This document shows positions 5,116 through 53,767 of a stretch of DNA of 64,000 bases, in pieces. Each line of letters opens with the position of its first letter. Positions within the stretch are counted from its first letter, which is position 1. A program made the position numbers and the translations under genes. The notes under the pieces are model-generated. The model saw only the letters and a program-made list of their open reading frames with translations, was not told the DNA's origin and searched no databases. The DNA is taken from the IMG/VR virus record IMGVR_UViG_3300033121_001410, positions 6,679-70,678 of that record, one strand, 5' to 3'. The DNA is from a virus (Duplodnaviria; Caudoviricetes).

Positions 5116-5144
5116 TTGAAATGTTGTTTTAAGTATGTTATAAG
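5116..5144 (+). promoter_or_regulatory. Sigma70-like promoter upstream of the nuclease and downstream terL half
   Basis: TTGAAA-17 nt-TATAAG with TG extension. Confidence 0.55.
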
Positions 5145-5194
5145 AATGACATTCTATAAAGATAACACTTAAAAAATAAGGAATTATAATTATT

Positions 5195-10595: not shown

Positions 10596-10616
10596 GATAC
10601 AAACAGTTTTTCCGTA

Positions 10617-10625
10617 TGCTATACT
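10617..10625 (+). promoter_or_regulatory. Extended -10 promoter, likely leaderless
   Basis: TG-C-TATACT ending 6 nt before ATG 10632; no SD. Confidence 0.5.
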
Positions 10626-10631
10626 TGAGAC

Positions 10632-18834: not shown

Positions 18835-18896
18835 ATTGTTTTATCCATGTATAATTATACTACATAAATATATAGGTAAAGCAAAAGAGGAAGAAA

Positions 18897-34471: not shown

Positions 34472-36382
34472 ATGGCACAATTTTCATTAAATAAGTTAAT
34501 GCTTGAAGACGTAAAACGTCAATCATTAGGCGCTGATATGCCACGCATTTCATCCAAATGGGAAAAGACAGGCTTGCTTGAAGGTCTTCGTGGAAACGGT
34601 AAAGACACAATGGCTCGTCTTCTTGAAAACCAATGTGTGGAACTCTTGAAAGAATCTAACGGTCTTTCAACTGGTGGTGCAAACCTTGTTTCATCCGGTC
34701 AAGTTGCTGGATTCACAAACGTTGCATTCCCAATCGTTCGCAGAGTTTTCGCTGGCTTAATTGCTAACGAAGTTGTAAGCGTACAACCAATGAGCTTACC
34801 ATCAGGTCTTTTGTTCTACCTTGATTACACATACGGTTCAAACGTAGGTGGAAATGCAGGCGTAAACCTTAGCACCTCAGCAACAGCAGAAACCTATGCA
34901 AAGGGTCAATCAGTTTATAACAATCCAGCCGGCGCAGGAATCCGTTCAGGTTCACTTGCAACTGGTGGTCAATATGACCTTGTTGGAACTGGTTATTCAA
35001 AGGTTCACAAAAACGCTCTTACAATCGCTGGTTCAACAGATGCAGTCGGTTATTGGGCATCAGGATCCATCTGGACCGCTGCTGGCGTAGTCGCTTCTAA
35101 CACCGATTTCGTTGGATACAATGCTCGTTTCGCAGGATTCGACGCAACTGTTTCAACTGATCTTGCAAATAGCGCACTTGATTATTGCTTCGTCCACATC
35201 TCAGCTTCTGAGTTTACCTCAAAGATTGGTGGAGCCGACCTTAATTCAGTTGAACAAATTGCACTTTTCGGTTTCGGTAGCGCAGTAAACAGCGCACTTG
35301 ATTGGGGAGCAGCTTATCAACAAGGTACAAACGTATTAAATCTTCGTAAGTACAATAAGCGTGGTAATTTCAATCCAATCACTGGTATCTTCTCACCAGA
35401 TCCATTCAATGGTTCACATATCCAATTCGTTGTCAAAGTTGCAAACGGCGGAACAGCACCAGCACCAGCAGGTTCAGCTACAACCTCAGTTTCAGCATCA
35501 GCAGCAATTGCAGATTCACTCTCAGTAAACAGCGATGGTTCAACTCTTACAATTCCATCATTCGAAACTGATTTCAACTATGACGCATCACCAAAGATCC
35601 CAGACGTTGACATTAAGATCGAATCAGTCTCCGTAACAGCAACCACACGTAAGTTGAGAGCACGTTGGTCACCAGAAATGGCACAAGACCTTACAGCATA
35701 TTTCAACATCGACGTTGAAGTTGAGCTTACAAACATCTTGTCAGAAATGATCACCCTCGAAATCGATCGTGAAATCCTTAATGACCTTGTTTCACAAGCT
35801 ACTGCTGCAAACTACTACTGGTCACGCGCCATTGGTAAGATGGTTAACAAGTACACTGGTGCAGAAGCACTTCACACCAATGTTCTTTCACCAGGTCCAA
35901 CAGCATACGTAAATGCTCAAGAATGGTATCAAACCTTACTTGAAACAATCACAGATGCTGCTAACACCATCTACAAGAAGACACTTCGTGGTTCAGGAAA
36001 CTTCATTGTAACCTCACCATCAGTCTGCACAATGTTTGAACATCTTAATACCTACAAGGCTTCATTCAAGATCGATTCAGACGGCCAAGTTTCAAATAAC
36101 ATGGCAATTGGCGCAGAAGCAGTTGGTAACCTTAACAACCGTTATGTTGTTTACAAGGATCCATATTTCCCAGAGAACAAGATTCTTATCGGTCTCAAGG
36201 GCAATACCTTCCTTGAAACAGGCTACATCTACGCTCCATACGTACCACTTATCTTGACACCAGTCATTTATGGAACCGAAGACTTCGTTCCTCGACGCGG
36301 AATAATGACCCGATACGGAAAGAAGATGGTTCGCTCCGACTTCTACGCAACAGTCACAGTTATGGACATGAACGTCATATAA
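34472..36382 (+). CDS. Major capsid protein (T4 gp23-like), 636 aa
   Basis: MARLLENQ, FPIVRRVF..LIANEVVSVQPMSLPSG, TRKLRARWSPE.AQDL, EIDREIL, GYIYAPYVPL, RGIMTRYG; ATG 34472. Confidence 0.97.
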   Translation: MAQFSLNKLMLEDVKRQSLGADMPRISSKWEKTGLLEGLRGNGKDTMARLLENQCVELLKESNGLSTGGANLVSSGQVAGFTNVAFPIVRRVFAGLIANEVVSVQPMSLPSGLLFYLDYTYGSNVGGNAGVNLSTSATAETYAKGQSVYNNPAGAGIRSGSLATGGQYDLVGTGYSKVHKNALTIAGSTDAVGYWASGSIWTAAGVVASNTDFVGYNARFAGFDATVSTDLANSALDYCFVHISASEFTSKIGGADLNSVEQIALFGFGSAVNSALDWGAAYQQGTNVLNLRKYNKRGNFNPITGIFSPDPFNGSHIQFVVKVANGGTAPAPAGSATTSVSASAAIADSLSVNSDGSTLTIPSFETDFNYDASPKIPDVDIKIESVSVTATTRKLRARWSPEMAQDLTAYFNIDVEVELTNILSEMITLEIDREILNDLVSQATAANYYWSRAIGKMVNKYTGAEALHTNVLSPGPTAYVNAQEWYQTLLETITDAANTIYKKTLRGSGNFIVTSPSVCTMFEHLNTYKASFKIDSDGQVSNNMAIGAEAVGNLNNRYVVYKDPYFPENKILIGLKGNTFLETGYIYAPYVPLILTPVIYGTEDFVPRRGIMTRYGKKMVRSDFYATVTVMDMNVI

Positions 36383-39743: not shown

Positions 39744-39793
39744 CAATATTTTATATTACAAATATCTATTTATAGAATAAATCGGTGTTATCA

Positions 39794-41296
39794 ATGAAAA
39801 ATATTTCTTTGCAAGAATTAAAATCAATTATAGAAGAAACATTAAAAGAAGAATTGACAAATGTTCCAGAAGAATGTGATTCGGTAGACCAAGAATATTT
39901 TTTGAAAAAAGTTGTTCCAACAATGGATTTAATTAATAAAATAATTAAACCAGATGTTAAAAATGCAAACATTATAGCACTTTCTAAAAGTTGCGAAGGA
40001 CATAAAAAGGCAAAGAAAAAAGATATGAGACATCAATTTTTGAAAACAAAACAAGCTTTTAAAATGAATGAAGAAGATGACCTTGGAAGCGACTCTGATT
40101 CCGGCGATAGTGGTGGTGACTCTTTAATGGAAGTTGCTCCTCCTGGAGAAAAATATGAAAAGATGATAATGGCTATGAAAAAGGCTGGCACGCCAAAAGA
40201 AATCGCGTTTGCAACTGCTTGGAAGGCTTACAATAAAAAACATAAAAAGCATGAATCCGTGAATGAAAGCGAAGAGTTGTGGATGCAATCTGCTGTTTCA
40301 AAACCTGGTGCATTACATAAACAATTAGGCATTCCAGAAGATGAAAAGATTCCAACAAGCCTTCTTAATTCTAAAAAGAAAGAATTGATGAAAAAAGGCG
40401 AAGGAGATAAGAAATTATCTGCTTCTGATAGAAAACTTCTTCAAAGAATAAACTTTGCATTGAATGCCAAAAAAGCAGTTCATGAATCATTTGAACCTCC
40501 TTATGACGAAGATAGAAGGGGAGATTATGCCGACGCTCTTGCAGAGCGTGATGAACGAATGATACATAGTATTATTGACACCATGGCAAATCACATGTTG
40601 CATCATGCAAAACATGGCACTAAGCCAGAAGATTGGGATTCTCTTGATCTTATTGATGATATTTATGATGAATTATCTGATGGCGAAATAGATTTTCTAG
40701 AAGATTCACCTGACCAAATAGAACATTTAAAGAGCGGCGCAATATTTCAAGCCAATCAACAATTGATTAAGGGAATGAAAAAAGATGAATCTGTTTTAGA
40801 AGAAGCGGATTCAATTGAAAATGTTTTAGGATCAAAAGATAATATTTTATCTCACATGACAAAACAATTCGTTGTCAATTATATTGAAAACGATATTCAT
40901 CCAGATGATTTAGACGCAGAAGATTTAATTAATGATTTGTTGGATGATGTTGCTAATAATCCAGTAAAAAACAAACAAGAATATGGATTTGCTCCAGAAG
41001 AGATAAATGCTATCGTTGACAACATTGACGAAGAAGGTAATTTGTCTCCAGATTTATTAAGATTGGTTAAATCTGCAAAAGCGGAGTCTAAAATACAAAT
41101 AGATAATTTCCTTAAAAAATATAAAGGAATTGACTTAACAGAAGCATTTTTACAACATCTTTCAGAATCATCAAAAGATGAACCGGAGAAGATTGATAAC
41201 ATGTTAGCTTTATATTTCTTCAATCATCTTAAAGGACTTAGAGATTATAAACCATTAATGAAACGTGTAATACTTAAAAAGAAAAAAGAAGGTTGA
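39794..41296 (+). CDS. Modular acidic protein, putative internal head protein
   Basis: ELKSIIEETLKEE leader; modules EVAPPG..AFATAWK and WMQSAVSKPGALHKQLGIPEDEKIP separated by xxE sites. Confidence 0.65.
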   Translation: MKNISLQELKSIIEETLKEELTNVPEECDSVDQEYFLKKVVPTMDLINKIIKPDVKNANIIALSKSCEGHKKAKKKDMRHQFLKTKQAFKMNEEDDLGSDSDSGDSGGDSLMEVAPPGEKYEKMIMAMKKAGTPKEIAFATAWKAYNKKHKKHESVNESEELWMQSAVSKPGALHKQLGIPEDEKIPTSLLNSKKKELMKKGEGDKKLSASDRKLLQRINFALNAKKAVHESFEPPYDEDRRGDYADALAERDERMIHSIIDTMANHMLHHAKHGTKPEDWDSLDLIDDIYDELSDGEIDFLEDSPDQIEHLKSGAIFQANQQLIKGMKKDESVLEEADSIENVLGSKDNILSHMTKQFVVNYIENDIHPDDLDAEDLINDLLDDVANNPVKNKQEYGFAPEEINAIVDNIDEEGNLSPDLLRLVKSAKAESKIQIDNFLKKYKGIDLTEAFLQHLSESSKDEPEKIDNMLALYFFNHLKGLRDYKPLMKRVILKKKKEG

Positions 41297-41297
41297 T

Positions 41298-41567
41298 ATG
41301 TCATCAAAAGTATCATTAAAAGAGTTCAAAGAAAAAGTAATTGACATGATTTATGAGATTCTTGAGGAAGAATTAAATAAATCAGAAAATGAAGATTCAG
41401 AAGAAAACAACCAAGAAAAAGTTCAAAAGGCTTTTATTTCTGTTAAAAATACTGGTGATAATGTTTATGGTGATTATGTTAAAAAACCAACAGTAGACCA
41501 TGATCTACCAGAAGAAAATCCTCTTTATAAGAGAATGCCTGTTTATCAACGCGACAGAGAAATCTGA
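41298..41567 (+). CDS. Hypothetical with LKEF..ILEE leader
   Basis: 89 aa, 1 nt after upstream stop. Confidence 0.65.
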   Translation: MSSKVSLKEFKEKVIDMIYEILEEELNKSENEDSEENNQEKVQKAFISVKNTGDNVYGDYVKKPTVDHDLPEENPLYKRMPVYQRDREI

Positions 41568-41569
41568 AA

Positions 41570-41914
41570 ATGAATAATTTGTTAAAAGAATATATTGAAG
41601 AATCCGTTAAGATTCAATTGCACGAAAACGTAACGCAACGTGTAATTGAATATCTTAAAAATGTATTCAATCATATTGAAGATAAAAATACAAATGCTGA
41701 AGTAAAGATGGCGCTCTTGGCTGCCTTAATGATAAAGTTTGGATTTCACAGACAAGATTTATCACGAATCTTAAGTATAAGAGATCCAGAAGTACGAGAA
41801 GTAGAAATAAGAGATTTAGCAGATCGTGCTATGTCTAGAATGAAAGGCGCATCAAAAGAAGATAAAAACATCTTCAATTATTTATATTTTGGAGCAAAGC
41901 CAAAAGTTTATTGA
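41570..41914 (+). CDS. Hypothetical with LLKEYIEE..LHE leader
   Basis: 114 aa. Confidence 0.65.
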   Translation: MNNLLKEYIEESVKIQLHENVTQRVIEYLKNVFNHIEDKNTNAEVKMALLAALMIKFGFHRQDLSRILSIRDPEVREVEIRDLADRAMSRMKGASKEDKNIFNYLYFGAKPKVY

Positions 41915-42468: not shown

Positions 42469-42701
42469 GGTATCAGTATAACACACTCTTGGGCATTCTT
42501 ATAGTGCAACATATTATATTTTTAAAGACACGAGGATGCTTTCTAGAGTCTTTTGTCAAAAGAATCAAGCTAGTATACCCAATGACTTTGTGAAGCCTTT
42601 AGAATGCCTTGAAAGGCATATTAATTTAATATTAATTTTATTTATCATAAAAAACCTGTGTTTAATCAAATAATTAATTCTAGTATTGATAAGGATTGTT
42701 T

Positions 42702-43937
42702 ATGTCAACATTTATGACAACTATGAGGCCAACAGTTTGGGGTTATTGGGATTCAGACCCGGCCTTTCAACAAGACGCTGATAAAATGATTACATATGTT
42801 TTCAGAAGCCTTGGTGAAGATGTATTGTCTGTGGAACTTACAAAAAAACAAGTTTGGAAATGTTTTGAAGAATCTGTTTTGGCATTCAATGCTTTGATGA
42901 TTGAATATCAAGCAAAAAGCAATTTAACATCTTTGTTAGGTACATCAACTGGTTCATGGAACTCACAAACGGGTTATTCGACAATTAATTTACAGAACAC
43001 CTATGTTCGACCAACTTTAGAGTTTTTAGTTAGACAAGCAGAGCCATATGCGGCAGAAGTTGGTTTTGGTGGCATTCAAGACACATATTCTGGTTCTATT
43101 ATTTTAACAAACGGCAAACAGGATTATGATATTTATAATGAATTAAAATCAGATGATGGAACAATTTTGGCATTTAATATGCCATCTGGTTCTTCTGGTA
43201 AAATAAAAATACATGAAGTGTTTCACCAAGCACCAATTCAATATGTGTTTAATTCAAATCTTGCATCAAACTTCGTTGCACAAGGTTTACCAGTAGAATC
43301 TTATATTCCAGATACTAGATTCTATGTTTTGCCAGTTTTTGAAGACACTTTGCGAGCAGGAATGTTGGAAGCGGCACAAAGAATTAGACGTTCTCATTTC
43401 TCTTATAAGATATCTGGAAGAAATATTAGATTGTATCCTACCCCAAACAATATGATTCCAGGATATAATGATCGCTTATGGCTTCGTATTGGTTATCCAC
43501 AATCTCCAATTCCTGGCATGACAGATCCCACTAATCCATCTGGGTCTATTCCAGATTCTACATTGGGTGGCGCAAGCAATCCAGGCAATGTTCCACTTGG
43601 TTTAATTGATTATAAGTCTCTTAATCCATGGGCGAGACAATGGATTTTTCAATATACATTGGCAAAAGCAAAAGAATTGCTTGGTTTGATTCGTAGCAAA
43701 ATCAAAGGTCCGCTTCCAATTCCAAATGCAGAATTGCAATTAAATGGCGAAGAATTAATCTCTCAAGCAAGAGAAGATGTAAAAGATTTACTTGTTGGAG
43801 ACAATGGCCTAAAAACAAAATTAGATAATTTGACATATGATAAACTTCAAGAAATGGAAACTGCCAAAGCAGAAAACATAATGAAGCAAATGCAAATGTT
43901 GCCAATGCCACCAGCTTGGTCTATTAAAATGGGATAA
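42702..43937 (+). CDS. Neck / head-tail adaptor protein (T4 gp13-like)
   Basis: LGEDVLSVELT; WIFQYTLAKAKELLG.IRSK....IPNAELQLNGEELI..A. Confidence 0.82.
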   Translation: MSTFMTTMRPTVWGYWDSDPAFQQDADKMITYVFRSLGEDVLSVELTKKQVWKCFEESVLAFNALMIEYQAKSNLTSLLGTSTGSWNSQTGYSTINLQNTYVRPTLEFLVRQAEPYAAEVGFGGIQDTYSGSIILTNGKQDYDIYNELKSDDGTILAFNMPSGSSGKIKIHEVFHQAPIQYVFNSNLASNFVAQGLPVESYIPDTRFYVLPVFEDTLRAGMLEAAQRIRRSHFSYKISGRNIRLYPTPNNMIPGYNDRLWLRIGYPQSPIPGMTDPTNPSGSIPDSTLGGASNPGNVPLGLIDYKSLNPWARQWIFQYTLAKAKELLGLIRSKIKGPLPIPNAELQLNGEELISQAREDVKDLLVGDNGLKTKLDNLTYDKLQEMETAKAENIMKQMQMLPMPPAWSIKMG

Positions 43938-43954: not shown

Positions 43955-44956
43955 ATGAAATTATTAAAAGAACATATTCAATTATTGATTAATGAGACCA
44001 TAAATGATGTTTTGTTAGAACAAAAAGGCGGGTCTATCATTGATGCATTGCAAAAGGCATCAAATGACTTTATAGATTTTTCTGAGAATGAACAAGAAAT
44101 CCCTACCAAAGAAGAAATTGTTAAACAAGTAAAAAAATTCATGGTTTATAAAAAACAAGCTGATGATAAAGGCAATTTTGTAGAAAAACAATATTGGGAA
44201 AAAGAAATAAAAGATTTGTTAAAATATAATGAATTATATAATCAATATCAAAATGAGGATGATATTCCTGTTAACTTATATCATGCATTAGAAAAAGTTG
44301 CCATGGCTTATGGATTAAAAGAAATTAGTCATGGGTCATCTAGAACGGCTTATGAATTACCTATTGGCGCATACGTACTTAAAATAGCAAGAAATAAAAA
44401 AGGTATTGCTCAAAATGAGCATGAAGTAGAGGTTTATACAAATCCACAAATTAAAGACATTGTTCCAAGAATATATCCAAAATCCGATTTACAAAATTAT
44501 TCTTATTTGATTGTAGAAAAAGTTAATGCATTTTCAACGTATAATGATTTTAAAAAAATAAAGCAATATAGTTCTTCAATTATTGACTTTGTGGCATTGA
44601 GGCCAAACACATGGTTTAGTGATCTGCAAAAAGCTTTAGTTACGGCTGTGAATGTAAAAAATAAACCTGAGAGAGATTTCACAATTGATTATATTTGTTC
44701 ACAAGAGTTTTCAACAAAATATATTTCTCAATATAATTCTTTAAGAATATATGATATGGCAACCATTAAAGATTGTTGTTTGGCATTTAAAGATAAAAAA
44801 TGGATTGATGAGGTTGCAAATCTTATCATTGAAGGAAGTCTAGCATATAATGATGTTTATGCTGAGCATTTTGGCACAACCTCTTCTGGTAGAGTAGTTA
44901 TATTTGATACAGGGCTAAGCGAAGAAATATACGGAAAGCATTATAAAATATGGTAA
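43955..44956 (+). CDS. Minimal protein-kinase-like protein K1
   Basis: SHGSSRTAY (G-loop), VLKIA, QNEHE, YLIVEKV, NDVYAEHFG, VIFDTG. Confidence 0.8.
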   Translation: MKLLKEHIQLLINETINDVLLEQKGGSIIDALQKASNDFIDFSENEQEIPTKEEIVKQVKKFMVYKKQADDKGNFVEKQYWEKEIKDLLKYNELYNQYQNEDDIPVNLYHALEKVAMAYGLKEISHGSSRTAYELPIGAYVLKIARNKKGIAQNEHEVEVYTNPQIKDIVPRIYPKSDLQNYSYLIVEKVNAFSTYNDFKKIKQYSSSIIDFVALRPNTWFSDLQKALVTAVNVKNKPERDFTIDYICSQEFSTKYISQYNSLRIYDMATIKDCCLAFKDKKWIDEVANLIIEGSLAYNDVYAEHFGTTSSGRVVIFDTGLSEEIYGKHYKIW

Positions 44957-45921
44957 AATCTTTGCTAAAAGAAAATATTAAAAGATTTATTGATGAAAGT
45001 GTTCAGCATTTTTTAATGGAAGCGCACGGACAATCTATTATAGATGTATTAAATGATGTAATAGATGAGTTTGATTATAATCAAAATCAAATAGAAGAAG
45101 AAATAGAAAAATTAGAACAAGAGATCGGTTTTACATGGAAAGAAATGCAACAGACATCAGATTATATGCCTTCTGATTATGCTGAACTTTTAGTAAAATA
45201 TAATAAATTGAAAGAAAAACATAAACAAGTTAAAGAAAAAAAATATAATAGCAATATTTTTTCTAAGTTGTTACTCGCTGCACACAATGCAGGTTTAAAA
45301 AGAATTGGAAGCGGGTCTTCGCGTACTGCTTTTGAATTACCAATTAATGCATATGTTTTAAAGTTAGCACTAAACGAAAAAGGCATATCTCAAAATGAAC
45401 AAGAAGTTAAAGGCTATACGAATCCAGCAGTTAAAGACATTGTTCCTAGAATATATCCAAAGTCAGACCTTGAGAATTATTATTTTTTAATTGTAGAAAA
45501 AGTAAAACCATATGATTCTGTTCATGAGTTTAAGTTGGATAAAAAATATAATTTCAGAATCATAAATGTATATGTCGGGGATGGCGGAACTGGATGGAAA
45601 AAATATTTGTTAGATGAAGTAAACAGCCATTTTGAGTTTACTATGAACAAAACTTTTACAGAAAAAGAATTGTGTAGCGGAGAAATAATGAGATATTATG
45701 GAGATATCAACTTTGGAGGCGACATGACTGTTGAAGATGCATGTAATGCATTTAAGGATAGTCATTGGATTGACGAATTGGCTAAATTAATAGAATCAGA
45801 ACAATTAACATCGGGGGATTTGTATGCTGAGCATTTTGGCACAACTTCTTCTGGTCGCGTTGTTTTTTACGATACAGGATTGAGCGAAGACGTATATAAC
45901 AGGTACTATAAACGATGGTAA
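44950..45921 (+). CDS. Minimal protein-kinase-like protein K2
   Basis: GSGSSRTAF, VLKLA, QNEQE, GDLYAEHFG, FYDTG. Confidence 0.8.
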   Translation: MVKSLLKENIKRFIDESVQHFLMEAHGQSIIDVLNDVIDEFDYNQNQIEEEIEKLEQEIGFTWKEMQQTSDYMPSDYAELLVKYNKLKEKHKQVKEKKYNSNIFSKLLLAAHNAGLKRIGSGSSRTAFELPINAYVLKLALNEKGISQNEQEVKGYTNPAVKDIVPRIYPKSDLENYYFLIVEKVKPYDSVHEFKLDKKYNFRIINVYVGDGGTGWKKYLLDEVNSHFEFTMNKTFTEKELCSGEIMRYYGDINFGGDMTVEDACNAFKDSHWIDELAKLIESEQLTSGDLYAEHFGTTSSGRVVFYDTGLSEDVYNRYYKRW

Positions 45922-46895
45922 AATCAATATTAAAAGAACAAATTAAACAAATTATTCATGAAGATGTATCTTTCATGCTTTTAGAAGCATATGGAAAAGA
46001 TATTGTTCAACAATTAAATGATATTGTTTTACAACACAACACAAAAGAATATGATATAAATAATATTATGCACAACCAAGAAACCGTTGATGCTATTAAG
46101 AGAAACTTACAATTTTATAAAAATAAATTAAAAGTAGCAATTGAAGTTGGAAATTACAGATATGAGTTTGAATATTCTAATAAAGTTAAAGAGTTAGAAA
46201 AAAAACTAGAAACTGCTATGTCTGGCTTTGATCCTTTTTATATGATGAGAAAAATAGCCGAAGATAATGGCTTAAAAGAATTAGGTCACGGTTCTTCTCG
46301 CTCTGCATTTGAATTACCTGTTAAATCATATGTTTTAAAAATCGCAAAAAACATCAAAGGTATAGCTCAAAACGAACAAGAGGTTTCTGTTTACACAAAT
46401 CCATCTATATCAAATATAGTCCCAAGAATCTATCCAAAATCAGATTTACAATCTTATTTGTTTTTAATTGTAGAAAAAGTGAGGCCGTTTAAAAACACAC
46501 TTGAGTTTGAAAAAATTAAAAAATACCCAGCAACATTTTTTGTTTTTATTGAAGATTATGGTTTTAATTGGAAATCTGAGGTTTTAAATAAGATTAATAA
46601 AGCACTAGCATCTTATGAAGATATTTCTTTTGAAGACATGTGTAATGGCAATATACCAGAAGGTTATGAAGAGTTATATATGCGAGGAATGTTTAGTAAT
46701 CTTTCTATAACATTTAGAGAAGCCTGTAATGCTTTTAAAGATGAGGAATGGTTAAATGAGGTTGCATCTTTAATGAAGAAAGAAAAATTATTAATTGGAG
46801 ATTTAACACACTACGGTCATCTTGGCGTAACAAGCAATGGAAGAGTTGTTATATTGGATACAGGATATTCTGAAGAAGTTAGAAAACTTTATTAA
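45915..46895 (+). CDS. Minimal protein-kinase-like protein K3
   Basis: GHGSSRSAF, VLKIA, QNEQE, GDLTHYGHLG, ILDTG. Confidence 0.8.
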   Translation: MVKSILKEQIKQIIHEDVSFMLLEAYGKDIVQQLNDIVLQHNTKEYDINNIMHNQETVDAIKRNLQFYKNKLKVAIEVGNYRYEFEYSNKVKELEKKLETAMSGFDPFYMMRKIAEDNGLKELGHGSSRSAFELPVKSYVLKIAKNIKGIAQNEQEVSVYTNPSISNIVPRIYPKSDLQSYLFLIVEKVRPFKNTLEFEKIKKYPATFFVFIEDYGFNWKSEVLNKINKALASYEDISFEDMCNGNIPEGYEELYMRGMFSNLSITFREACNAFKDEEWLNEVASLMKKEKLLIGDLTHYGHLGVTSNGRVVILDTGYSEEVRKLY

Positions 46896-46917
46896 TAAAA
46901 AATTGTAATATAATAAT

Positions 46918-47091
46918 ATGAGTATAAGTGCAACAATGCTTTCTTTAGTTTCTAGAATGGGGGCCGACAAAATATTAAAAGGTTTGGCCGATGCTCTTGA
47001 ATATCAAGCATCTATAGAAAAAGACAGAAGAAAAAAAGATAAACTTTTATATGACGCAAATATTATCAGAAGAACTGCGTCTCGACTATAA
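46918..47091 (+). CDS. Small hypothetical protein (57 aa), absent from ORF track
   Basis: MSISATMLSLVSRMGADKILKGLADALEYQASIEKDRRKKDKLLYDANIIRRTASRL; fills the gap on the coding strand. Confidence 0.55.
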   Translation: MSISATMLSLVSRMGADKILKGLADALEYQASIEKDRRKKDKLLYDANIIRRTASRL

Positions 47092-47160
47092 ATCATAAAA
47101 ATATAACATTTATTTATTTTATCAATATATTTATAATTAACATCAAGGAAAGCAACACTT

Positions 47161-48813
47161 ATGTCTTTTATTAAGAATACAATTGGTAATCGAGGTTTAA
47201 TATCTGAACTTGTTGACAGCAATCCAGAACATGCATTATTTGTTGAAGGGACTGTTGTTAATAGCAACACTGTCCCAAGCTTATCAACCTATAACAAAAT
47301 ATATGTATCACCTACTGGAAATGATACTACGGGTGATGGAAGTTTTAGTAATCCATTTGCAACCCCAGGAAAAGCAGTAGATAAAATATATTCATATCAA
47401 TTGCCTGTTCAACCAAATGGCGCATTTGGTTTTGTAGTGTATATGATGTCTGGCTCTTATTCTACGTGGGCCAATCCTCAATATATGACAACCACTTTTA
47501 CACCAATTGTAAATGGTTATGGTTCTGGATATTCTAATTCAACTGGATCTATTGTGTTTACACCTTATTTTACAACAGGAAATCTTGGGACTGTGAACGA
47601 TGAAAGATTCACAACAATTAGGGGTCCACTAACCCCTGTCGCCGTATCTACCACAGGATCAAGACCAACATATATTTTTGCAACTGGGTCTTTTTCTTCT
47701 ACAGACCAAGATCTCGGTAAAGTAGTCAGAGTATTTAATAATGGAAATGAAGTTTATCGCGGCCTTGTTGCTTTCCAAAAGGTAAATGAAGGCGGAAGAG
47801 ATAAACTTACAATAGCATGTTCAGAGGGAGATGCGTATTTAAACTTCACAAATATTACAGCAAGTATAAATGATAGGATTTATATAACAACTCCATCAGT
47901 TAGAATAAATGATAGTGTTAATATTTCAAATCTTGGAACAAGTGTTCTTTTTACTGGTATTTCATTTTATAAATTATCCCACTATGGAACAAATGGAGAT
48001 ATAGGAACAACTAATTTTTTTGGCTGTTATTTTGGAGATGGTGTTATAGAACAACCATTTGTAAACATTTCTGGGCACGTTGCATTTGGAGATTGGGCAT
48101 TTTATAATTATTCATATTATGAATCAATATATCCAGGATATGGATATAGTGCTTATGCTTTGCCAGACTCAACTGGGCTTTCTATACAAGAGCAAACTTT
48201 GTGGAATGGATGGAACAGTGCATTTATTGGCCCTCCTGGTTATGGTGCTGGGAATACGCGAGGTGCTGGGGTTTTTGGTGGCAATGCAAAATTAAAATAT
48301 TTTGTTGCTAATGGTGATTTCTATGCATTTCAAAATGAAGGAAATAATTTAGAACTTATTTTATATTCTCCAATGATTCGTGGTGGACTAGTTGCAACAC
48401 ATACTTCACTTTTGTTTAGTAGTAATTACCCAACATCTTTGCCAGCCATCTTTACTAACAGAACAATTAACCTTAATACATCAGAAGTTGGAGCAGATAT
48501 TCCAATCATGCTGGAATTAGAAACCGTCTCTAATACACCTGTTATTCTTAATAATGTAAATTACAGAAATGATTATAATGCTTTGATTTTTAAAGCATTA
48601 AATGCAACTAGTGCTTCTAATATAAATCCATTAATTCAAGTTTCAAACACACCATTTTTGAGAATTAATGCCACCTCTTGTACGGCTCATGGTAGTGGAA
48701 GTACATCAGATATCAAAGTAGGCACATTAAACGTAGCATCATTTACAACACTAAACTCCAGTGGTTCAAATGGAATTGTTGACAGTGCAACATTAACAAG
48801 AGTAGGTATATAA
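47161..48813 (+). CDS. Virion appendage / beta-helix-like protein
   Basis: IYVSPTGND.TGDGS.SNPFAT..KA motif typical of pectate-lyase-like beta-helix N-termini; T/S/G/N-rich. Confidence 0.6.
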   Translation: MSFIKNTIGNRGLISELVDSNPEHALFVEGTVVNSNTVPSLSTYNKIYVSPTGNDTTGDGSFSNPFATPGKAVDKIYSYQLPVQPNGAFGFVVYMMSGSYSTWANPQYMTTTFTPIVNGYGSGYSNSTGSIVFTPYFTTGNLGTVNDERFTTIRGPLTPVAVSTTGSRPTYIFATGSFSSTDQDLGKVVRVFNNGNEVYRGLVAFQKVNEGGRDKLTIACSEGDAYLNFTNITASINDRIYITTPSVRINDSVNISNLGTSVLFTGISFYKLSHYGTNGDIGTTNFFGCYFGDGVIEQPFVNISGHVAFGDWAFYNYSYYESIYPGYGYSAYALPDSTGLSIQEQTLWNGWNSAFIGPPGYGAGNTRGAGVFGGNAKLKYFVANGDFYAFQNEGNNLELILYSPMIRGGLVATHTSLLFSSNYPTSLPAIFTNRTINLNTSEVGADIPIMLELETVSNTPVILNNVNYRNDYNALIFKALNATSASNINPLIQVSNTPFLRINATSCTAHGSGSTSDIKVGTLNVASFTTLNSSGSNGIVDSATLTRVGI

Positions 48814-48815
48814 TC

Positions 48816-49016
48816 ATGACAAGACAAGAGTTTTTTTTAAATCTTTTTAATTCTATTTTAGCATCCAAAGATAAAAATATTCGCAATTTTTATCCACCAC
48901 ATAAAATGAATGATGAAATATCGTCTCTTAATCGCATGATCAATTTACGTGTTGAACAAGGCGAAGTAGAAGAAGATATTTATAAAGAAATATTAGCAAA
49001 ATATAGTCTTAGTTAA
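48816..49016 (+). CDS. Hypothetical protein
   Basis: 66 aa, 2 nt after upstream stop. Confidence 0.55.
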   Translation: MTRQEFFLNLFNSILASKDKNIRNFYPPHKMNDEISSLNRMINLRVEQGEVEEDIYKEILAKYSLS

Positions 49017-49057
49017 TATTGGCTCATATATTTATTATAAATAATATGATGTAATAT

Positions 49058-49738
49058 ATGAGCAGATTATTTATAACAAGTCGTGAAATACAAATGATCA
49101 ACGATATCACAAAAGAGTTTGTGAAGGATATTGTTGGTCAATTTGTAATTTATTATCCTGTGTCTACACTAAAGACCCGCATTCATCCAGTGTACGACGA
49201 AGCAGTTAAGAAAATATTTGAAAATCCAATCAAATTAAATGTTCTTGTAAATCAACCGGAAGTTACAAATGCATATAATGTATTCGCAATGGAACAAATA
49301 ACGAAACTTGAGTTCTATGTTCAAGCAAGAGATTTAATTGACAAAGGATTTACTGTCAACGAAGGTGATTATTTCGTATATGGTACACAAGTCTATGAAG
49401 TACAAAACGTCACATTTTTAAACAATATTTTCGGACAAGTTGAATATGAAGTAGGATATAAGGTATTAGGTAAACCAGCACGTATTGGCGAGTTTAATCC
49501 AGAAATGTTTCTTAGTCCGACACATGACAGCAATGATTCTTATCTTGAAAAAAATGTTCAAAGAGAGTTCGTGCAACAAAGAGGACTTGGTGAAACAAAC
49601 GAAGGTGCAACAGGCGATGTTCGTGAAATGTATCAGCGTCTTAAAGAAGACAAGCCAGATATTGCATTGGGTGAAGGACCACGAGAAATTGTTGTGGATG
49701 AAGAAAGTAAGTCATCCAAGTTTTATTCAGATGATTGA
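49058..49738 (+). CDS. Head closure / neck protein (T4 gp14-like)
   Basis: E..KDIVGQ.VIYY, VYDEA, EGDYF, YEVQNV; position between gp13- and gp15-like genes. Confidence 0.7.
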   Translation: MSRLFITSREIQMINDITKEFVKDIVGQFVIYYPVSTLKTRIHPVYDEAVKKIFENPIKLNVLVNQPEVTNAYNVFAMEQITKLEFYVQARDLIDKGFTVNEGDYFVYGTQVYEVQNVTFLNNIFGQVEYEVGYKVLGKPARIGEFNPEMFLSPTHDSNDSYLEKNVQREFVQQRGLGETNEGATGDVREMYQRLKEDKPDIALGEGPREIVVDEESKSSKFYSDD

Positions 49739-49743
49739 TTAAT

Positions 49744-50400
49744 ATGTTAAAAGAATATATCAAATTAATAATTGAACGAGAAAATATTGTAGGTTTTGAT
49801 TTTAATCAATTCAAACAATTAAAAACGTTGCCTGAACAATATGCTTATGCTAAAGATAATTTGAACATTGTAAGTGATGAAGGACAAGGAAGAACAGTAT
49901 TTGATCTTGGGGATAAAGTATTAAAGGTTGCAAAAATATCAAATATAAAGTTTGCCAATGGCGTTTTGCAAAATAAGCATGAATTATCTAAATATAAAAA
50001 ATTAAAAGAAATCGATTTTGTTCCAACAATTTATGATTATGACCAAACAGGAAATTGGATTTTGTCAGAAAAAGTTAGTGGGTTTGATTTAAATGATTAC
50101 GAACGATTGCATCAGTATACTGATTTATATTGGGACGAAATGGAATTAGTGTTTTCTGATTTACTTCAACCTCGTGGTCCGTATACGATTGATCAAATGC
50201 AATATCCAGAAAAGTATCCAGAATTAGAAGATGAAATACTTGATGAAACAGATTTTGGCAACGACTGGAGAAACAATCCTAACATTCAAAAAATATTTAG
50301 CGCAATAAAAATGGGCGTGGGGCAAGAAGAAGTTTTGGTAGTTCCACATTATGGCACAACAGTAGATAATAAATTAGTATTATTAGATTATGGAATATGA
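49744..50400 (+). CDS. Minimal protein-kinase-like protein K4 (possible pseudokinase)
   Basis: DEGQGRTVF, VLKVA, QNKHE, WILSEKV, EEVLVVPHYG (no clear Asp), LLDYG. Confidence 0.72.
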   Translation: MLKEYIKLIIERENIVGFDFNQFKQLKTLPEQYAYAKDNLNIVSDEGQGRTVFDLGDKVLKVAKISNIKFANGVLQNKHELSKYKKLKEIDFVPTIYDYDQTGNWILSEKVSGFDLNDYERLHQYTDLYWDEMELVFSDLLQPRGPYTIDQMQYPEKYPELEDEILDETDFGNDWRNNPNIQKIFSAIKMGVGQEEVLVVPHYGTTVDNKLVLLDYGI

Positions 50401-51158
50401 GAATGAAACTTTTAAAGGAATATATAGAAAATATTGTTAAATCTTATCTTGCTGAGTATAAGAGTGGATTTAATATAAATTACTTTAAATCTATTAAAGA
50501 TGCCAAAGAGATGTTAAAATACGCTGGGGATATGTTGCAAACACTAGGGGTCGGAAGTGGCCGTGCCGCTTTTTTATTGCCAAATACAAACAAGGTTTTA
50601 AAAATTGCTTTAAGGCCGGCAGGAATAGCCCAAAACGAACAAGAGGCATCTGTGTTTACAAATCCACAAACACAAGAAGTTGTAACAAAAATATATGATT
50701 TTGATCCAGAATATAAATGGTTAATATCTGAGACAGCCAGAGAGTTTGTTACAAAAGAAGAGTTTGATAATAAGGTTGGTATAGACTTTGATGCCTTTGT
50801 AGGCGCGATACAATTAGGAATAAATTGGCAAGAAGACATTTCAGACTTCGTTGAAGAAATGTATGACGATAAAACTCCAGGCGAAAGACAAAAAAAGATC
50901 AATGATCTTTTAAATAACAAAGATTTTGTAAATAAAGCTATTGCCATGAAATCTGCAACAAAAACTTCAATTGGAGACATGAGCAGAGTAGAACATTGGG
51001 GATATACATCTGATGGTCGAATTGTACTGTTGGATTATGGCGCTTCTCTTGAAATTGTTAATAAGTTTTATCCAAAAAACAAAGATTTTAATTTGAAAAG
51101 TTTTGATGATCCAACTGTTGATACGCAAATGCAAACAGTTAAGCAGGGCAAAAAATAA
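50397..51158 (+). CDS. Minimal protein-kinase-like protein K5
   Basis: GVGSGRAAF, VLKIA, QNEQE, GDMSRVEHWG, LLDYG. Confidence 0.8.
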   Translation: MRMKLLKEYIENIVKSYLAEYKSGFNINYFKSIKDAKEMLKYAGDMLQTLGVGSGRAAFLLPNTNKVLKIALRPAGIAQNEQEASVFTNPQTQEVVTKIYDFDPEYKWLISETAREFVTKEEFDNKVGIDFDAFVGAIQLGINWQEDISDFVEEMYDDKTPGERQKKINDLLNNKDFVNKAIAMKSATKTSIGDMSRVEHWGYTSDGRIVLLDYGASLEIVNKFYPKNKDFNLKSFDDPTVDTQMQTVKQGKK

Positions 51159-51159
51159 A

Positions 51160-51780
51160 ATGAGTTTGATAATAAAAGAATATATTGATTTAATTGTTGA
51201 AAAGATTTATTCTGTAGACAAAAAAAATCAATTTAAATTAAATGATTTAAAATCTTTAAATAATCTACGTGATATACAAGATTATACCAGAAATAAATTA
51301 AAAAAACTAGGCGAGGGAACTGCAAGAGAAGTATATTTGTTGAACACAGGTAAGGTGTTGAAAATTGCATTAGATAGATATGACACTGAACAAAATGAAG
51401 GCGAAGTGTTTGCCTCTGCAAGATTCGGAGATTTAGTTCCAAGTGTATATGAATGGGATCCCAATTATAATTGGATCATTACAGAATTAGTTAAGCCATT
51501 AGAAAATAATCCAGAAAGTGAAAATATTTTTAAATTAAAATCTGGATTGTCTTTTAATGATTATGATGATTTTATAAAATATCATTCATTTGGAACATCA
51601 AATAAAAAAGAAGAATTAAAAAAATCACGTTTGATGAAAAATGGTTTTATAAAAAAATTAATTGATGCTGATTCGCAAGGATTGGATATATTGGATTCAA
51701 CTAAGCTTTTTCAGTGGGGCATAGATAGCGAAGGAAGATTAAAGTATTTAGACCCAGGATTATCATACTTTGGAGAATGA
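51160..51780 (+). CDS. Minimal protein-kinase-like protein K6
   Basis: GEGTAREVY, VLKIA, QNEGE, LDSTKLFQWG, YLDPG. Confidence 0.75.
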   Translation: MSLIIKEYIDLIVEKIYSVDKKNQFKLNDLKSLNNLRDIQDYTRNKLKKLGEGTAREVYLLNTGKVLKIALDRYDTEQNEGEVFASARFGDLVPSVYEWDPNYNWIITELVKPLENNPESENIFKLKSGLSFNDYDDFIKYHSFGTSNKKEELKKSRLMKNGFIKKLIDADSQGLDILDSTKLFQWGIDSEGRLKYLDPGLSYFGE

Positions 51781-51781
51781 A

Positions 51782-52501
51782 ATGAAGTTAAAAGAGTTTA
51801 TATTATTAGAAACAAAAAAACAACTTATTGAGTCGTTGTTTAAAAATGTAGATTTAAATTATTTAAAATCATCTGACGATCCTGATGAAATGATTGAGTA
51901 TTTAAAATATGAAGCTGGACTTCCATATTATGGCAAAGGATCATCTAGAGTTGTTTTCGGCGTTTCACCTGAAAAGGTCATAAAGGTTGCACACGATCTT
52001 GATAAAGATATCGCTGCTGGGATTGAACAAAATGCAGCCGAGGTAGATGTGTTTACAAATCCTGCTACAAAAAATATTGTAGCAAAGGTTTTTGATTATC
52101 ATCCAGATTTTCTTTGGATTATTTCTGAACGTATTGAACAGTTTCAAGACCCGGTTCAGTATACAAATGAAACTGGGCTTAGTTCTTCTTTTGTTATTCA
52201 ATTTTTAATGCAAATTAAATTATATGGAGAACAAAATGGGTTTGAAAAACTTAAAGAAGAATATGAAAGCGTAAAAGGAAGCACAAGATTGAGAGATAAA
52301 AACTTTGTTAAAAACTTTGAATCTGCTTTTTATGGAAATGGAAAAGAGTTTTTCAACAAATTAAAAGATGTCATGTTGAAAAATGATCTTATGCCAAAAG
52401 ATTTCGGGTATGAACATTTTGGAAAAACAGCAGATGGAGATGTTGTTTTGTTAGATTATGGGTTTACTGGCGCTGTACAAAGTAATTTTTACGGATCTTA
52501 A
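51782..52501 (+). CDS. Minimal protein-kinase-like protein K7
   Basis: GKGSSRVVF, VIKVA, QNAAE, KDFGYEHFG, LLDYG. Confidence 0.8.
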   Translation: MKLKEFILLETKKQLIESLFKNVDLNYLKSSDDPDEMIEYLKYEAGLPYYGKGSSRVVFGVSPEKVIKVAHDLDKDIAAGIEQNAAEVDVFTNPATKNIVAKVFDYHPDFLWIISERIEQFQDPVQYTNETGLSSSFVIQFLMQIKLYGEQNGFEKLKEEYESVKGSTRLRDKNFVKNFESAFYGNGKEFFNKLKDVMLKNDLMPKDFGYEHFGKTADGDVVLLDYGFTGAVQSNFYGS

Positions 52502-52540
52502 AAATATAAATAATAATTTAATTTTGATATATTTATCAAC

Positions 52541-53767
52541 ATGATTAAAGAGCCAAATATAATACGACAAAACATTCCTGCTGGTTCTGATGACGATTTA
52601 GGTCATTTACCATCTGGTTATGGTAATGATGGGGGAACAGAAAGTACAACTTTTTATATTCCTCCATGTGGTATTGAAGATTGTGATGTGGCAATTTATA
52701 GACTCTTTAATGAAACAATAAAATGGTCAAATCGTTCTCTAGCGACATCTGAGGGTGCTGTTGATATTAAAAAACCTCAAGTCATATTTGCCACTGGAGA
52801 AAAGTTTGCGATTGCTAAAAAATTAAGACCGCCAAGAGATAAAAACCAAGTATTAATTTTGCCAGCTATATCTGTTAGAAGAGTTTCAATTGAACAACAA
52901 TCTGATGATATAAATGGTCGAGGCATGAATCAATTTACTGGTGATATTGTCATTAAAAGAAGACTAGCACCAGAAGATACAAATTATCAAAATCTCATAA
53001 ACAAATATGCGTTTAAAAATCTTGATAGAAGTATGTCTTCGAACAGAAAACAAGGAGAAGATGCATATTCTTCTGCTAAAACCGAAGGTGCTTTATTAGA
53101 TCCAGAGTTGGGGAACAATATATTTGAGATTTTTACAATACCTCAACCACAATTTTTCACAGCAAATTATGAAATAATTTTCTGGACATCTTTTACTCAA
53201 CATATGAATTATATGGTTGAAACACTTATGTCATCTTATTTGCCCCAAAGAGGGTTTAGACTTGGAACTGATAAAGGTTATTGGTTTATGGCCCAAGTTG
53301 ACGACAGCATGAAAAGTGCAGATAATTTTGAAGATTTCACGGAAGAAAAAAGAATAATTCGTTATAATTTTAATATATCAGTTAAAGGATATCTTTTGGC
53401 TCCTAACGGTCCTGCAAATATGGTTCCAATTAGAAGATATTTGTCTGCACCAACTGTAATATTTGAAACCTATGAAGCAGGTACTGGCGATATAATAAGG
53501 ACAAGAGACAAAGACGTTCCACCATTATCCTCTGATACAGATAATAGATTTATTTTGTCTGATATTGAACAAGATGAGAATACAAAAATTGAACCTACAT
53601 CTCAACAGAAGTTTTTAGTCAAAAAAGAATACATAAATCCTATTACTGGCAAAAAAACAATTAAATACGTTAAAATATTACAAAGTAATCAAAAAAAAGG
53701 TGAAACATCTTATTATGCATCGGATATTAAAACGTTAGAAGATTTTATGAGTGAAGGAAACAAATAA
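52541..53767 (+). CDS. Tail terminator / sheath stabiliser (T4 gp15-like)
   Basis: LILPAISVRR; PQPQFFTANYEIIFWT...HMNYMVE; immediately before sheath. Confidence 0.75.
   Translation: MIKEPNIIRQNIPAGSDDDLGHLPSGYGNDGGTESTTFYIPPCGIEDCDVAIYRLFNETIKWSNRSLATSEGAVDIKKPQVIFATGEKFAIAKKLRPPRDKNQVLILPAISVRRVSIEQQSDDINGRGMNQFTGDIVIKRRLAPEDTNYQNLINKYAFKNLDRSMSSNRKQGEDAYSSAKTEGALLDPELGNNIFEIFTIPQPQFFTANYEIIFWTSFTQHMNYMVETLMSSYLPQRGFRLGTDKGYWFMAQVDDSMKSADNFEDFTEEKRIIRYNFNISVKGYLLAPNGPANMVPIRRYLSAPTVIFETYEAGTGDIIRTRDKDVPPLSSDTDNRFILSDIEQDENTKIEPTSQQKFLVKKEYINPITGKKTIKYVKILQSNQKKGETSYYASDIKTLEDFMSEGNK

Follow-up and report, generated by a model that had tools for sequence, protein, structure and literature searches.

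The DNA analysed here (the window, 64,000 nucleotides) comes from an uncultured giant T4-like phage and is part of a jumbo-phage fragment that is about 19% complete. It carries seven mutually paralogous ORFs, K1 to K7, all on the plus strand, which form two groups, K1-K3 (43955-46895) and K4-K7 (49735-52501), among genes resembling those of the T4 neck. The genes of this region and the copies of a promoter-like 10-mer are the following.

18864, minus strand: exact copy of the promoter-like 10-mer ATATATTTAT
42696..43937, plus strand: gp13-like neck protein (head-tail adaptor); PHROG 211, E 3.9e-6; T4 gp13 in the PDB, E 0.007; syntenic in relatives
43955..44956, plus strand: K1, 333 aa, with leader, N-terminal extension of about 100 aa and kinase-like core; PHROG 4301, E 7.5e-13
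44950..45921, plus strand: K2, 323 aa, overlapping the K1 stop; PHROG 4301, E 2.2e-12
45915..46895, plus strand: K3, 326 aa, overlapping the K2 stop; PHROG 4301, E 1.4e-15
47125-47134: ATATATTTAT, upstream of the 550-aa gene
47161..48813, plus strand: 550-aa protein encoded between the arrays, a possible fibre protein of tail or neck; weak match to PHROG 4577, 'tail protein', E 4.8e-4
49026..49035, plus strand: ATATATTTAT, 23 nt before the start of the gp14-like gene
49058..49738, plus strand: gp14-like neck (stopper) protein, matched at the fold level only
49735..50400, plus strand: K4, 221 aa, start TTG, alternative ATG at 49744; PHROG 4301, E 2.5e-9
50397..51158, plus strand: K5, 253 aa, C-terminal tail of 38 aa; PHROG 4301, E 9.2e-16
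51160..51780, plus strand: K6, 206 aa from ATG 51160; PHROG 4301, E 4.3e-8
51770..52501, plus strand: K7, 243 aa (239 aa from the alternative ATG 51782); PHROG 4301, E 1.1e-19
52527..52536, plus strand: ATATATTTAT, upstream of the gp15-like gene
52541..53767, plus strand: gp15-like tail sheath stabiliser/terminator; PF16724, E 0.0018, sub-threshold in the window copy

An earlier note, made from the sequence alone, had described two tandem arrays of seven diverged kinase-like genes; these are real, co-oriented ORFs of a single family, PHROG 4301 ("unknown function"), which all seven match with E values of 4e-8 to 1e-19. This family is widespread in uncultured jumbo phages, and no Pfam model for it was found in the Pfam copy searched. 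Pairwise identity among the seven aligned proteins is 20-48%, and K2 is 48% identical to K1. The gp13-like stop and the K1 start are 17 nt apart, and stops and starts overlap at K1/K2, K2/K3, gp14-like/K4, K4/K5 and K6/K7. The K6 start is read as ATG 51160, which directly follows the K5 stop, so the listed TTG 51103 is unlikely. In the tree, K1-K3 form a window-specific clade (aLRT 100), while K4, K6 and K7 have orthologues at the related locus L003, at 7893-8579 (50% identity, aLRT 100), 9340-9990 (aLRT 98) and 9992-10702, respectively. K5 probably corresponds by sequence to the remaining one of the four L003 genes (40% identity, a pairing not settled by the tree). Three of the four L003 genes are thus supported positional orthologues, so the paralogues are old and have each been retained.

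Kinase motifs of K proteins—The G-loop Gly and Arg, V-K-A, Q-N-x-x-E, the hinge Glu, a Gly and D-x-G are invariant in the seven proteins. Among about 290 family domains, G57, R60, K72, Q87, N88, E91, D229 and G231 are 99-100% conserved and the catalytic-loop D211 is kept in 95%; the D211-D229 spacing is 18 residues, as in canonical kinases. The motifs listed in the earlier note are therefore present in the set, except that K4 has Glu where the catalytic-loop Asp is expected, a change shared by its L003 orthologue. K1 is complete apart from Ser for the first G-loop Gly, K5 keeps every key residue and K6 has Gln in place of the His that follows the catalytic Asp. This His itself replaces the canonical catalytic-loop Asn in 78% of family members. 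The hinge is Glu or Asp, with Gln in about 5%. Six of the K proteins end 1-13 aa after DxG, as had been claimed for most of them (within about 15 aa), and K5 continues for 38 aa. Mean pairwise identity is 43% in the N-lobe and 33% around the catalytic loop, but drops to 15% in the stretch that links this loop to the hinge, which bears out the suggestion that divergence is greatest there. This stretch is a helical subdomain of 50-86 aa, with five helices in the K7 model, so the K proteins are not bare N-lobe-plus-loop cores and their description as stripped-down cores does not hold.

The AlphaFold (AF2) model of K7 has a pLDDT of 93.7 and its Foldseek matches in the PDB are nearly all kinase-like, with probabilities of about 1; they include MTR kinase, APH(2''), PRPK/Bud32, LicA, AceK, CDK6 and MEK1. 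The best structural match is PRPK, the human Bud32 homologue (VIA-align Z 8.4, middling by the tool's own scale; rmsd 3.8 A, 143 aligned, residues 30-235). The AceK kinase domain also matches K2 weakly, on the catalytic loop, and BFVD matches to K7 include phage proteins annotated as kinases. The protein kinase-like fold foreseen in the earlier note is thus recovered together with conserved catalytic residues, and its proposed likeness to OspG/NleH or Bud32 stands only at the fold level, for PRPK, while OspG and NleH are absent among the listed matches. On sequence and model, the PHROG 4301 family is predicted to consist of atypical, C-terminally truncated protein-kinase-like enzymes, present in the window as diverged paralogues. 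Small-molecule kinases score as high as protein kinases in the fold searches.

Neck module and promoters—The order gp13-like, gp14-like, one to four K genes, gp15-like, sheath, sheath recurs at more than 20 uncultured IMG/VR loci with 25-50% identity, and K copy number among relatives ranges from 1 to 7. Sequence searches with the gp14-like ORF gave no hit; its AF2 model (pLDDT 63.5) has the T4 portal-neck-tail complex chain 9mkb_0 as best match (E 3.7e-5), followed by other neck proteins. PF16724 is matched by 10 of 14 gp15-like orthologues (best E 2.7e-15). The placement of the K genes inside a gp13-gp14-gp15 cluster, as first proposed, is therefore that of a true neck module, though of distant homology. 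Each of the four exact copies of ATATATTTAT in the window closely precedes a gene start, its end being 5-22 nt from the start codon, and the promoter-like copy at 49026 would drive the gp14-like gene plus K4-K7. The K genes are translationally coupled to neck genes and are thus probably made late.

Leader of K proteins—All seven K proteins begin with a conserved leader containing (L/I)xE motifs. By sequence it appears amphipathic, with two or three such motifs, and resembles the 10-residue capsid-targeting sequence of T4 internal proteins; this sequence is given in PMC8442874 and its processing by gp21 is described in PMC5694885 and PMC11690488. Of 123 family members, 117 have [LI]xE within their first 25 aa; the rate there is 0.080 per position, while the remainder of these proteins has 0.011 and the N-termini of control ORFs 0.012. 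The head genes of the window and three non-kinase ORFs with similar leaders are the following.

29610..31310, plus strand: prohead protease of the T4 gp21 type (Peptidase_S77); PF03420, E 3e-21, above cut-off; PHROG 207
34472..36382, plus strand: major capsid protein of the T4 gp23 type; PF07068, E 6.9e-77
39785..41296, plus strand: 503-aa ORF with a similar N-terminal leader; its L003 orthologue has a leader of the same kind
41298..41567, plus strand: 89-aa ORF, its leader similar; L003 has two orthologous copies with related leaders
41570..41914, plus strand: 114-aa ORF with the strict leader pattern at residue 4; its L003 orthologue has a related leader

The strict pattern has eight matches in the 70.7-kb contig, every one at an ORF N-terminus, and the 114-aa ORF is the only non-kinase among them. 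BLAST similarity between its leader and those of K1/K2 is not significant. The enrichment of the leader on non-K ORFs comes from few matches, three N-terminal versus seven internal. Family searches with the 503-aa ORF gave no hit. The protease gene is interrupted by an intein (LAGLIDADG and intein domains), and the major capsid protein has an N-terminal propeptide with several LxE motifs. The capsid-targeting-like leader claimed earlier is thus supported by its resemblance to the T4 sequence, by its presence on unrelated neighbouring ORFs and by an S77 prohead protease encoded in the same phage. Alignments of the kinase-like fold exclude it, most beginning at K7 residues 23-38. It is modelled in K7 as a helix (pLDDT about 80) and, being conserved family-wide as part of the family profile, could also be an N-terminal helix that belongs to the structure of the domain and not a tag for removal. 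Fused 'polykinases' in the family keep (L/F)xE followed by basic residues at their internal junctions, which do not have the extreme N-terminal part of the leader.

The leader, which is like a T4 head-loading tag, and the position in the neck cluster suggest that K proteins may be injected with the DNA. The reading that we prefer, tentatively and at somewhat less than even odds, is that the K kinases are made late, enter the prohead, are trimmed inside it and are ejected along with the genome. The leader would dock them onto the prohead scaffolding core, the gp21-type S77 protease would cut it off at an (L/I)xE site, and the mature kinases would remain in the head until they exit with the DNA. 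We infer the late timing, the packaging, cleavage and ejection, and the existence of protein substrates, as well as any role, such as the one against host defences that the earlier note suggested.

It is possible, if doubtful, that the K kinases are made late, are not packaged and act in the cytoplasm during assembly, where they might shut down host sensors that respond to capsid, portal or terminase proteins, or instead regulate assembly or lysis. The same operon-like coupling with the neck genes fits this, the N-terminal helix would serve the enzyme in a structural or regulatory capacity, as its place in the domain profile and its modelled helix allow, and some phage kinases are known to disarm defences (bioRxiv 10.1101/2024.12.20.629319). 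However, the leader on unrelated neighbouring ORFs and the 7-fold local enrichment of (L/I)xE are left unexplained, and a promiscuous kinase active during assembly would hit the late proteins of the phage itself; T7 inactivates its kinase early.

That the K proteins are small-molecule phosphotransferases or ATPases, acting on a nucleotide signal, a sugar or an envelope precursor, packaged or not, is unlikely. The top fold matches do include MTR kinase, aminoglycoside phosphotransferases, choline kinase LicA and PsiK, as well as PRPK/Bud32, which acts mainly as an ATPase. K proteins lack an activation segment and have His where Asn is usual, and the invariant G-loop Arg and helix-C Q-N pair are unusual for protein kinases. 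Nevertheless, the C-terminal helical substrate pocket that follows DFG in APH and choline kinases is absent from K, the nearest named viral fold neighbours are protein kinases, T7-type included, and Phage_T7_kinase is found on 17% of members in one neighbouring Atlas cluster. Very improbable are non-catalytic kinase-fold parts of the neck or head, such as nucleotide-binding scaffolds: the genes do sit among neck genes and K4 and its orthologue have lost the catalytic Asp, but conservation is complete for the Lys, Glu and DxG Asp and nearly so for the catalytic Asp, which is typical of active enzymes, the variable copy number is unusual for a stoichiometric structural part, and in cultured relatives the gene lies outside the structural module.

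Comparison with known systems—Cultured homologues of K occur in Asteriusvirus and Eneladusvirus (24-29% identity by tblastn), and the RaK2 protein H6X4G3 is matched in BFVD (E 1e-11). These and CBB-like homologues belong to PHROG 4301, and a few of their GenBank records say Ser/Thr kinase. They differ from K in being single copies of 170-195 aa without leader, in keeping the canonical Asp-x4-Asn and in having small hypothetical genes of early-region type as neighbours instead of neck genes. The arrangement in the window is seen in no cultured relative. The statement of the earlier note that it knew of no described system like this must be qualified: C-terminally truncated kinases in phage 'polyvalent proteins', presumably packaged, were predicted in 2017 (PMC5512222) and a counter-defence role is described for the T7 kinase (bioRxiv 10.1101/2024.12.20.629319).

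T7 gp0.7 (T7K) is, like K, a phage-encoded protein-kinase-like enzyme without a normal C-lobe, T7-type kinases are among the K fold neighbours, and this broad counter-defence enzyme is a precedent for wide phosphorylation of host proteins (bioRxiv 10.1101/2024.12.20.629319). It is, however, a single early gene whose product is unpackaged, and K is set apart from it by the motifs GxGSSR and QNxxE and by a His instead of Asn. The sequence link between them is not significant (hhalign E 0.088 over 32 columns), and the T7K PHROG is matched by none of the 74 K family members searched. In T4, IPI-III and Alt likewise have a short N-terminal leader with (L/I)xE at its end, in a phage that also encodes a gp21-type protease, and Alt is an enzyme that modifies proteins and is both packaged and injected (PMC5694885, PMC11690488). 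None of this T4 cargo is a kinase, its genes lie outside the neck module and its cleavage and packaging are proven, where those of K are predicted. The K leader, at about 20-25 aa, exceeds that of T4 in length and is a conserved element of the family.

Iyer et al. 2017 described C-terminally truncated kinase domains that keep active-site residues in phage 'polyvalent proteins' of Verrucomicrobia-Chlamydia and Bacteroidetes (pro)phages, which are marked by Gln in the last N-lobe strand and Glu before strand 2, have stand-alone versions and are predicted to be virion-delivered and to act on host proteins (PMC5512222). K likewise has lost the C-terminal subdomain and kept the active-site residues, but consists of free genes or kinase-only fusions, not mixed multidomain proteins, and has the Glu/Asp hinge in place of their Gln. 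Among PRPK/Bud32 and the other minimal kinases (RIO, OspG/NleH), PRPK resembles K in its small size and absence of an activation segment; sequence identity is 17-19%, and in K the helical subdomain precedes the catalytic loop and the protein ends right after DxG.

In giant phages, some ejected head proteins form families of paralogues that share a propeptide (PMC5694885). If the K proteins are likewise packaged and ejected, they would phosphorylate host targets ahead of any phage gene expression, and the paralogues, most divergent in the helical subdomain that separates hinge from catalytic loop, would differ in their substrates.

Seven co-oriented ORFs encode the K proteins, which are small kinase-like paralogues located in two arrays among the neck genes, as the earlier note had described. 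Each has a match to PHROG 4301, whose annotation is "unknown function" (E 4e-8 to 1e-19), and their pairwise identity is 20-48%. In Pfam, no K protein has a significant match, with only sub-threshold matches to AceK and to an unrelated coiled coil. The motifs that had been named for them are invariant columns of the seven-copy alignment (G-loop Gly and Arg, V-K-A, Q-N-x-x-E, hinge Glu and D-x-G), and divergence does peak between the hinge and the catalytic loop, where mean identity is 15% versus 43% and 33% on either side. The description of a stripped-down core does not hold, since a helical subdomain of 50-86 residues, and not a gap, forms the variable middle. The most likely start of K6 is the ATG at 51160. 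An alternative genetic code (two TGA codons lie inside one match) was rejected; both TGAs belong to the overlap ahead of K4, and every ORF is uninterrupted under table 11. Paralogy, a kinase-like fold, residence in the neck module and a probable catalytic competence are established in silico for the K proteins. The features used below are the following:

18864-18873, - strand, ATATATTTAT, candidate phage promoter element
29610-31310, Peptidase_S77 prohead protease, gp21-type (PF03420, E 3e-21)
43955-46895, + strand, K1-K3
47125-47134, + strand, ATATATTTAT, candidate phage promoter element
49026-49035, + strand, ATATATTTAT, candidate phage promoter element
49735-52501, + strand, K4-K7
52527-52536, + strand, ATATATTTAT, candidate phage promoter element

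The source is a viral contig of 70.7 kb from IMG/VR with GC of about 30%, which CheckV rates as about 19% complete, implying a genome of roughly 370 kb. Megablast against GenBank phages gave no match to the region, and the best cultured sheath matches are only about 30% identical. The contig has a T4-type morphogenesis module with a gp20-type portal, the S77 (gp21-type) prohead protease, a gp23-type capsid protein and two sheath paralogues of about 1000 aa each. The capsid protein propeptide carries LxE motifs, one of which is judged from the sequence to be at the position equivalent to the T4 gp23 cleavage site. The sheath-like paralogues are in tandem (53906-56941 and 58121-61102) with a 356-aa ORF between them, and the pair is kept in most related loci. 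The terminase gene is divided by inteins and homing endonucleases, and such insertions are also found in a GroEL-like gene, the portal and the prohead protease (3812-10595, 19733-22462, 25361-28678 and 29610-31310); free-standing HNH and GIY-YIG genes are frequent in the window. Between portal and protease, at the position of the T4 prohead core genes, there is a 292-aa ORF (28745-29623) with a leader-like stretch near residue 12 that is conserved in the orthologue of a related IMG/VR locus, L018. The gene of a predicted metal-dependent hydrolase (38946-39743; PF10118, E 3e-80) separates the leader-bearing ORFs from the capsid gene region.

The neck genes around the arrays are identified with different strength. 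The gp13-like protein matches PHROG 211 and the PDB gp13 at E 0.007, and the gp15-like protein matches PF16724 in 10 of 14 orthologues (best E 2.7e-15). The gp14-like assignment is based on a medium-confidence fold only (pLDDT 63.5), which comes closest to the T4 portal-neck-tail complex (E 3.7e-5), with neck proteins from other phages next in rank. Neither sequence nor profile searches of the PDB returned anything relevant for the gp14-like and gp15-like proteins. The K genes are tightly packed with these genes: the gp13-like stop is 17 nt from the K1 start, and the pairs K1/K2, K2/K3, gp14-like/K4, K4/K5 and K6/K7 overlap. Most of the gap from K3 to the 550-aa gene is occupied by a small ORF of about 57 aa (46918-47091). 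The 10-mer ATATATTTAT has four exact copies in the 64 kb, each just upstream of a gene start and ending 5-22 nt from the start codon; the genes downstream of three of them are the 550-aa gene and those of the gp14-like and gp15-like proteins. This arrangement fits co-transcription of K4-K7 with the gp14-like gene from the candidate promoter. The T4 late-promoter octamer TATAAATA, present in 18 copies versus 10 ± 3.3 expected, was not relied on, as only those at 49036 and 52505 are well placed. A generic scan for sigma-70 promoters and terminators was uninformative.

Every K protein opens with a stretch of the general form hydrophobic-hydrophobic-Lys-Glu-aromatic-Ile, with one or two further (L/I)xE motifs within about 24 residues. 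The proposed leader similar to the capsid-targeting sequence (CTS) of T4 is present in all seven copies, with two or three (L/I)xE motifs in the first 24 aa. The T4 CTS (sequence in PMC8442874) is 10 residues long and ends in I-A-E; it guides Alt as well as the internal proteins to the core of the prohead, and gp21 cleaves it off (PMC5694885, PMC11690488). Like T4, this phage encodes a protease of the matching gp21-type family (S77). Among 123 family proteins whose N-terminus is intact, 117 carry one or more [LI]xE motifs within residues 1-25. The frequency of the motif per position is 0.080 in this leader region, compared with 0.011 in the remainder of these proteins (7-fold) and 0.012 at the N-terminal ends of 838 control ORFs; the members counted are not phylogenetically independent.

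The leader could be a plain N-terminal helix of the enzyme, because the family members share it and the family profile includes it. Kinase-fold alignments of K7 begin past it, and all eight occurrences of its strict pattern in the contig are at ORF N-termini; the eighth is on a non-kinase ORF of 114 aa (41570-41914). This ORF shows no significant BLASTP similarity to K1 or K2, the leader similarity being too short for BLAST significance. It is the last of three consecutive non-kinase ORFs (503, 89 and 114 aa; 39785-41914) that begin with a K-style leader and match no family, and their orthologues in L003, the closest related locus, begin with such a leader as well. The three ORFs are candidates for further head cargo, and leader enrichment outside the K genes is counted on these three cases. 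The strict pattern is also seen at the start of non-kinase ORFs in two other phage contigs (L043:16194-17252, - strand, 352 aa; L053:11123-11635, - strand, 170 aa).

The family is very large. A profile search of 1.84 billion representative proteins gave 4021 clusters (at 50% identity) at E <= 1e-3 and 2297 at E <= 1e-10, and the Atlas neighbour clusters are 92-100% viral. In 74 IMG/VR loci, many from contigs of 200-460 kb, K copy number within 20 kb is 1-4, so the seven copies here are the largest set seen. Synteny across related phages was borne out in more than 20 loci, in the order gp13-like, gp14-like, K genes, gp15-like, sheath, sheath; in a few loci a single K gene separates gp13-like from gp14-like or lies a few kb ahead of gp13-like. 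A quick tree with SH-aLRT support only, read together with BLAST, makes K4, K6 and K7 supported positional orthologues of three of the four L003 K genes, while K5, at 40% identity and with no resolution in the tree, is the probable orthologue of the fourth. The K4-K7 array is therefore old, with every paralogue retained, whereas K1-K3 arose by a lineage-specific triplication and carry about 100 additional residues at the N-terminus. Homologues in cultured Asteriusvirus and Eneladusvirus are single, short and leaderless, and are found among small hypothetical genes of early-region type. Other metagenomes contain polykinases, which are single ORFs with three or four tandem K-family domains (P0002, at L078:204-2975, P0003, P0004 and P0008). 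Their internal junctions have (L/F)xE followed by basic residues and lack the extreme N-terminal part of the leader, as expected if the first part of the leader targets and the second is cut.

Packaging of the K proteins in the head and their injection is, tentatively, the best single explanation, because a single mechanism would then explain the late context, the modular nature of the leader, its enrichment in (L/I)xE, the S77 protease and the junctions of the polyproteins. Kinases that are made late and act in the cytoplasm are a somewhat less likely alternative; they would share the neck-gene context, and would go with a leader that is only an enzyme helix. Published work on T7 shows that a phage with a promiscuous kinase has to switch it off before its late proteins build up, which, by reasoning only, makes sequestration or a propeptide-masked form attractive for a kinase made late.

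The AF2 model of K7, built from an alignment of 74 family members, has a mean pLDDT of 93.7, with strands and helix in the order expected of a protein-kinase-like (PKL) fold. Foldseek against the PDB agrees with the predicted PKL fold, as the top matches are almost all protein-kinase-like with a probability of about 1; they include MTR kinase, APH(2''), PRPK/Bud32, LicA, PsiK, AceK, CDK6 and MEK1. VIA-align places residues 30-235 of K7 on human PRPK (rmsd 3.8 A, 143 aligned) and then on many kinases; its Z of 8.4 is middling on the scale of the tool, yet nearly all the structures listed share one fold and the alignments span the whole core. In the search of predicted viral structures, uncharacterised proteins from RaK2- and CBB-like jumbo phages score best, and proteins named kinases, T7-type included, rank lower. 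Beside the mixed PDB list stands the reading of the K proteins as small-molecule phosphotransferases, which is improbable.

In K7 numbering, Lys72 is in beta-3 (strand 69-74) and Glu91 in helix C (helix 82-96), and both are 100% conserved in about 290 domains; Gly57, Arg60, Gln87, Asn88, Asp229 and Gly231 are likewise conserved at 99-100%. The DFG equivalent is D-[YTP]-G, with D229 at 100% and G231 at about 100%. Asp211 of the catalytic loop is 95% conserved and precedes Asp229 by 18 residues, the canonical spacing. The Asn position of D-x4-N is His in 78% of members and otherwise Gln, Ser or Asn, while the leaderless cultured homologues retain Asn after the catalytic Asp. The catalytic-loop motif reported for all copies is kept in most; in K4 the Asp is replaced by Glu, and in K6 the next His by Gln. 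Non-catalytic K proteins, a reading that K4 favours and the conserved residues speak against, are highly improbable. Most of the proteins were also said to end near D-x-G, as six copies do (1-13 residues after it), while K5 has a tail of 38 aa; activation segment, APE motif and helices F-I are absent. Nothing follows the DFG motif, which sets the family outside eukaryotic-type kinases. There is no Pkinase match in Pfam, and PDB sequence and profile searches gave only non-significant matches to AceK and SteC (E 0.13-0.44). From the fold model and the conserved residues, the K proteins form an atypical phosphotransferase family that is very probably active.

No sequence link to the T7 gp0.7 kinase emerged. 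In hhalign, the 74-sequence K profile reaches E 0.088 over G-loop and beta-3 only, which is not significant, and none of the 74 members matches the T7 kinase PHROGs; one Atlas neighbour cluster carries PF27024, the T7 gp0.7 kinase family, on 17% of its members. The T7 kinase is made only after DNA entry, whereas the K family may be virion-delivered. Paralogue families of ejected head proteins are known in giant phages (PMC5694885), and a 2017 study predicted truncated kinases within polyvalent proteins that are presumably packaged (PMC5512222). Like the latter, the K family lacks the C-terminal subdomain and keeps the active site, but its hinge-strand residue is Glu (229), Asp (49) or Gln (14) and its architectures are single domains or kinase-only repeats. 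The claim of the earlier note that no such system had been described therefore needs qualification: phage kinases (T7), packaged protein-modifying enzymes (T4 Alt) and targeting leaders (T4 CTS) are known separately, and packaged truncated kinases had been predicted, but the combination appears undescribed in the literature searched, as do the K family itself, its fixed neck-module place and the kinase-only polyproteins.

A fuller scheme for a large uncultured jumbo-phage clade, which is doubtful as a whole, would run from kinase loading to an injected multi-kinase arsenal. A set of specialised kinases would enter the capsid through the T4-like targeting leader, and the prohead protease would take off the leader, perhaps thereby turning the enzymes on. 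In some relatives, the protease would also split kinase polyproteins into single enzymes at the (L/F)xE junctions. The injected kinases would then rewire or disarm the host ahead of any phage gene expression.

Poxviruses and herpesviruses package kinases, and T4 injects the ADP-ribosyltransferase Alt; K proteins that are packaged and injected would be a parallel to these and the first virion-delivered kinase set in a phage. Phage kinases, of which T7 is the known example, were recently shown to be broad counter-defence enzymes (bioRxiv 10.1101/2024.12.20.629319). The old, individually retained paralogues and the fused polykinases suggest divided substrate specificities, which could be mapped by phosphoproteomics. 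If the proposal is true, the leader would be a possible new cargo tag for phage-head engineering, and a function would be given to a very large uncharacterised family.
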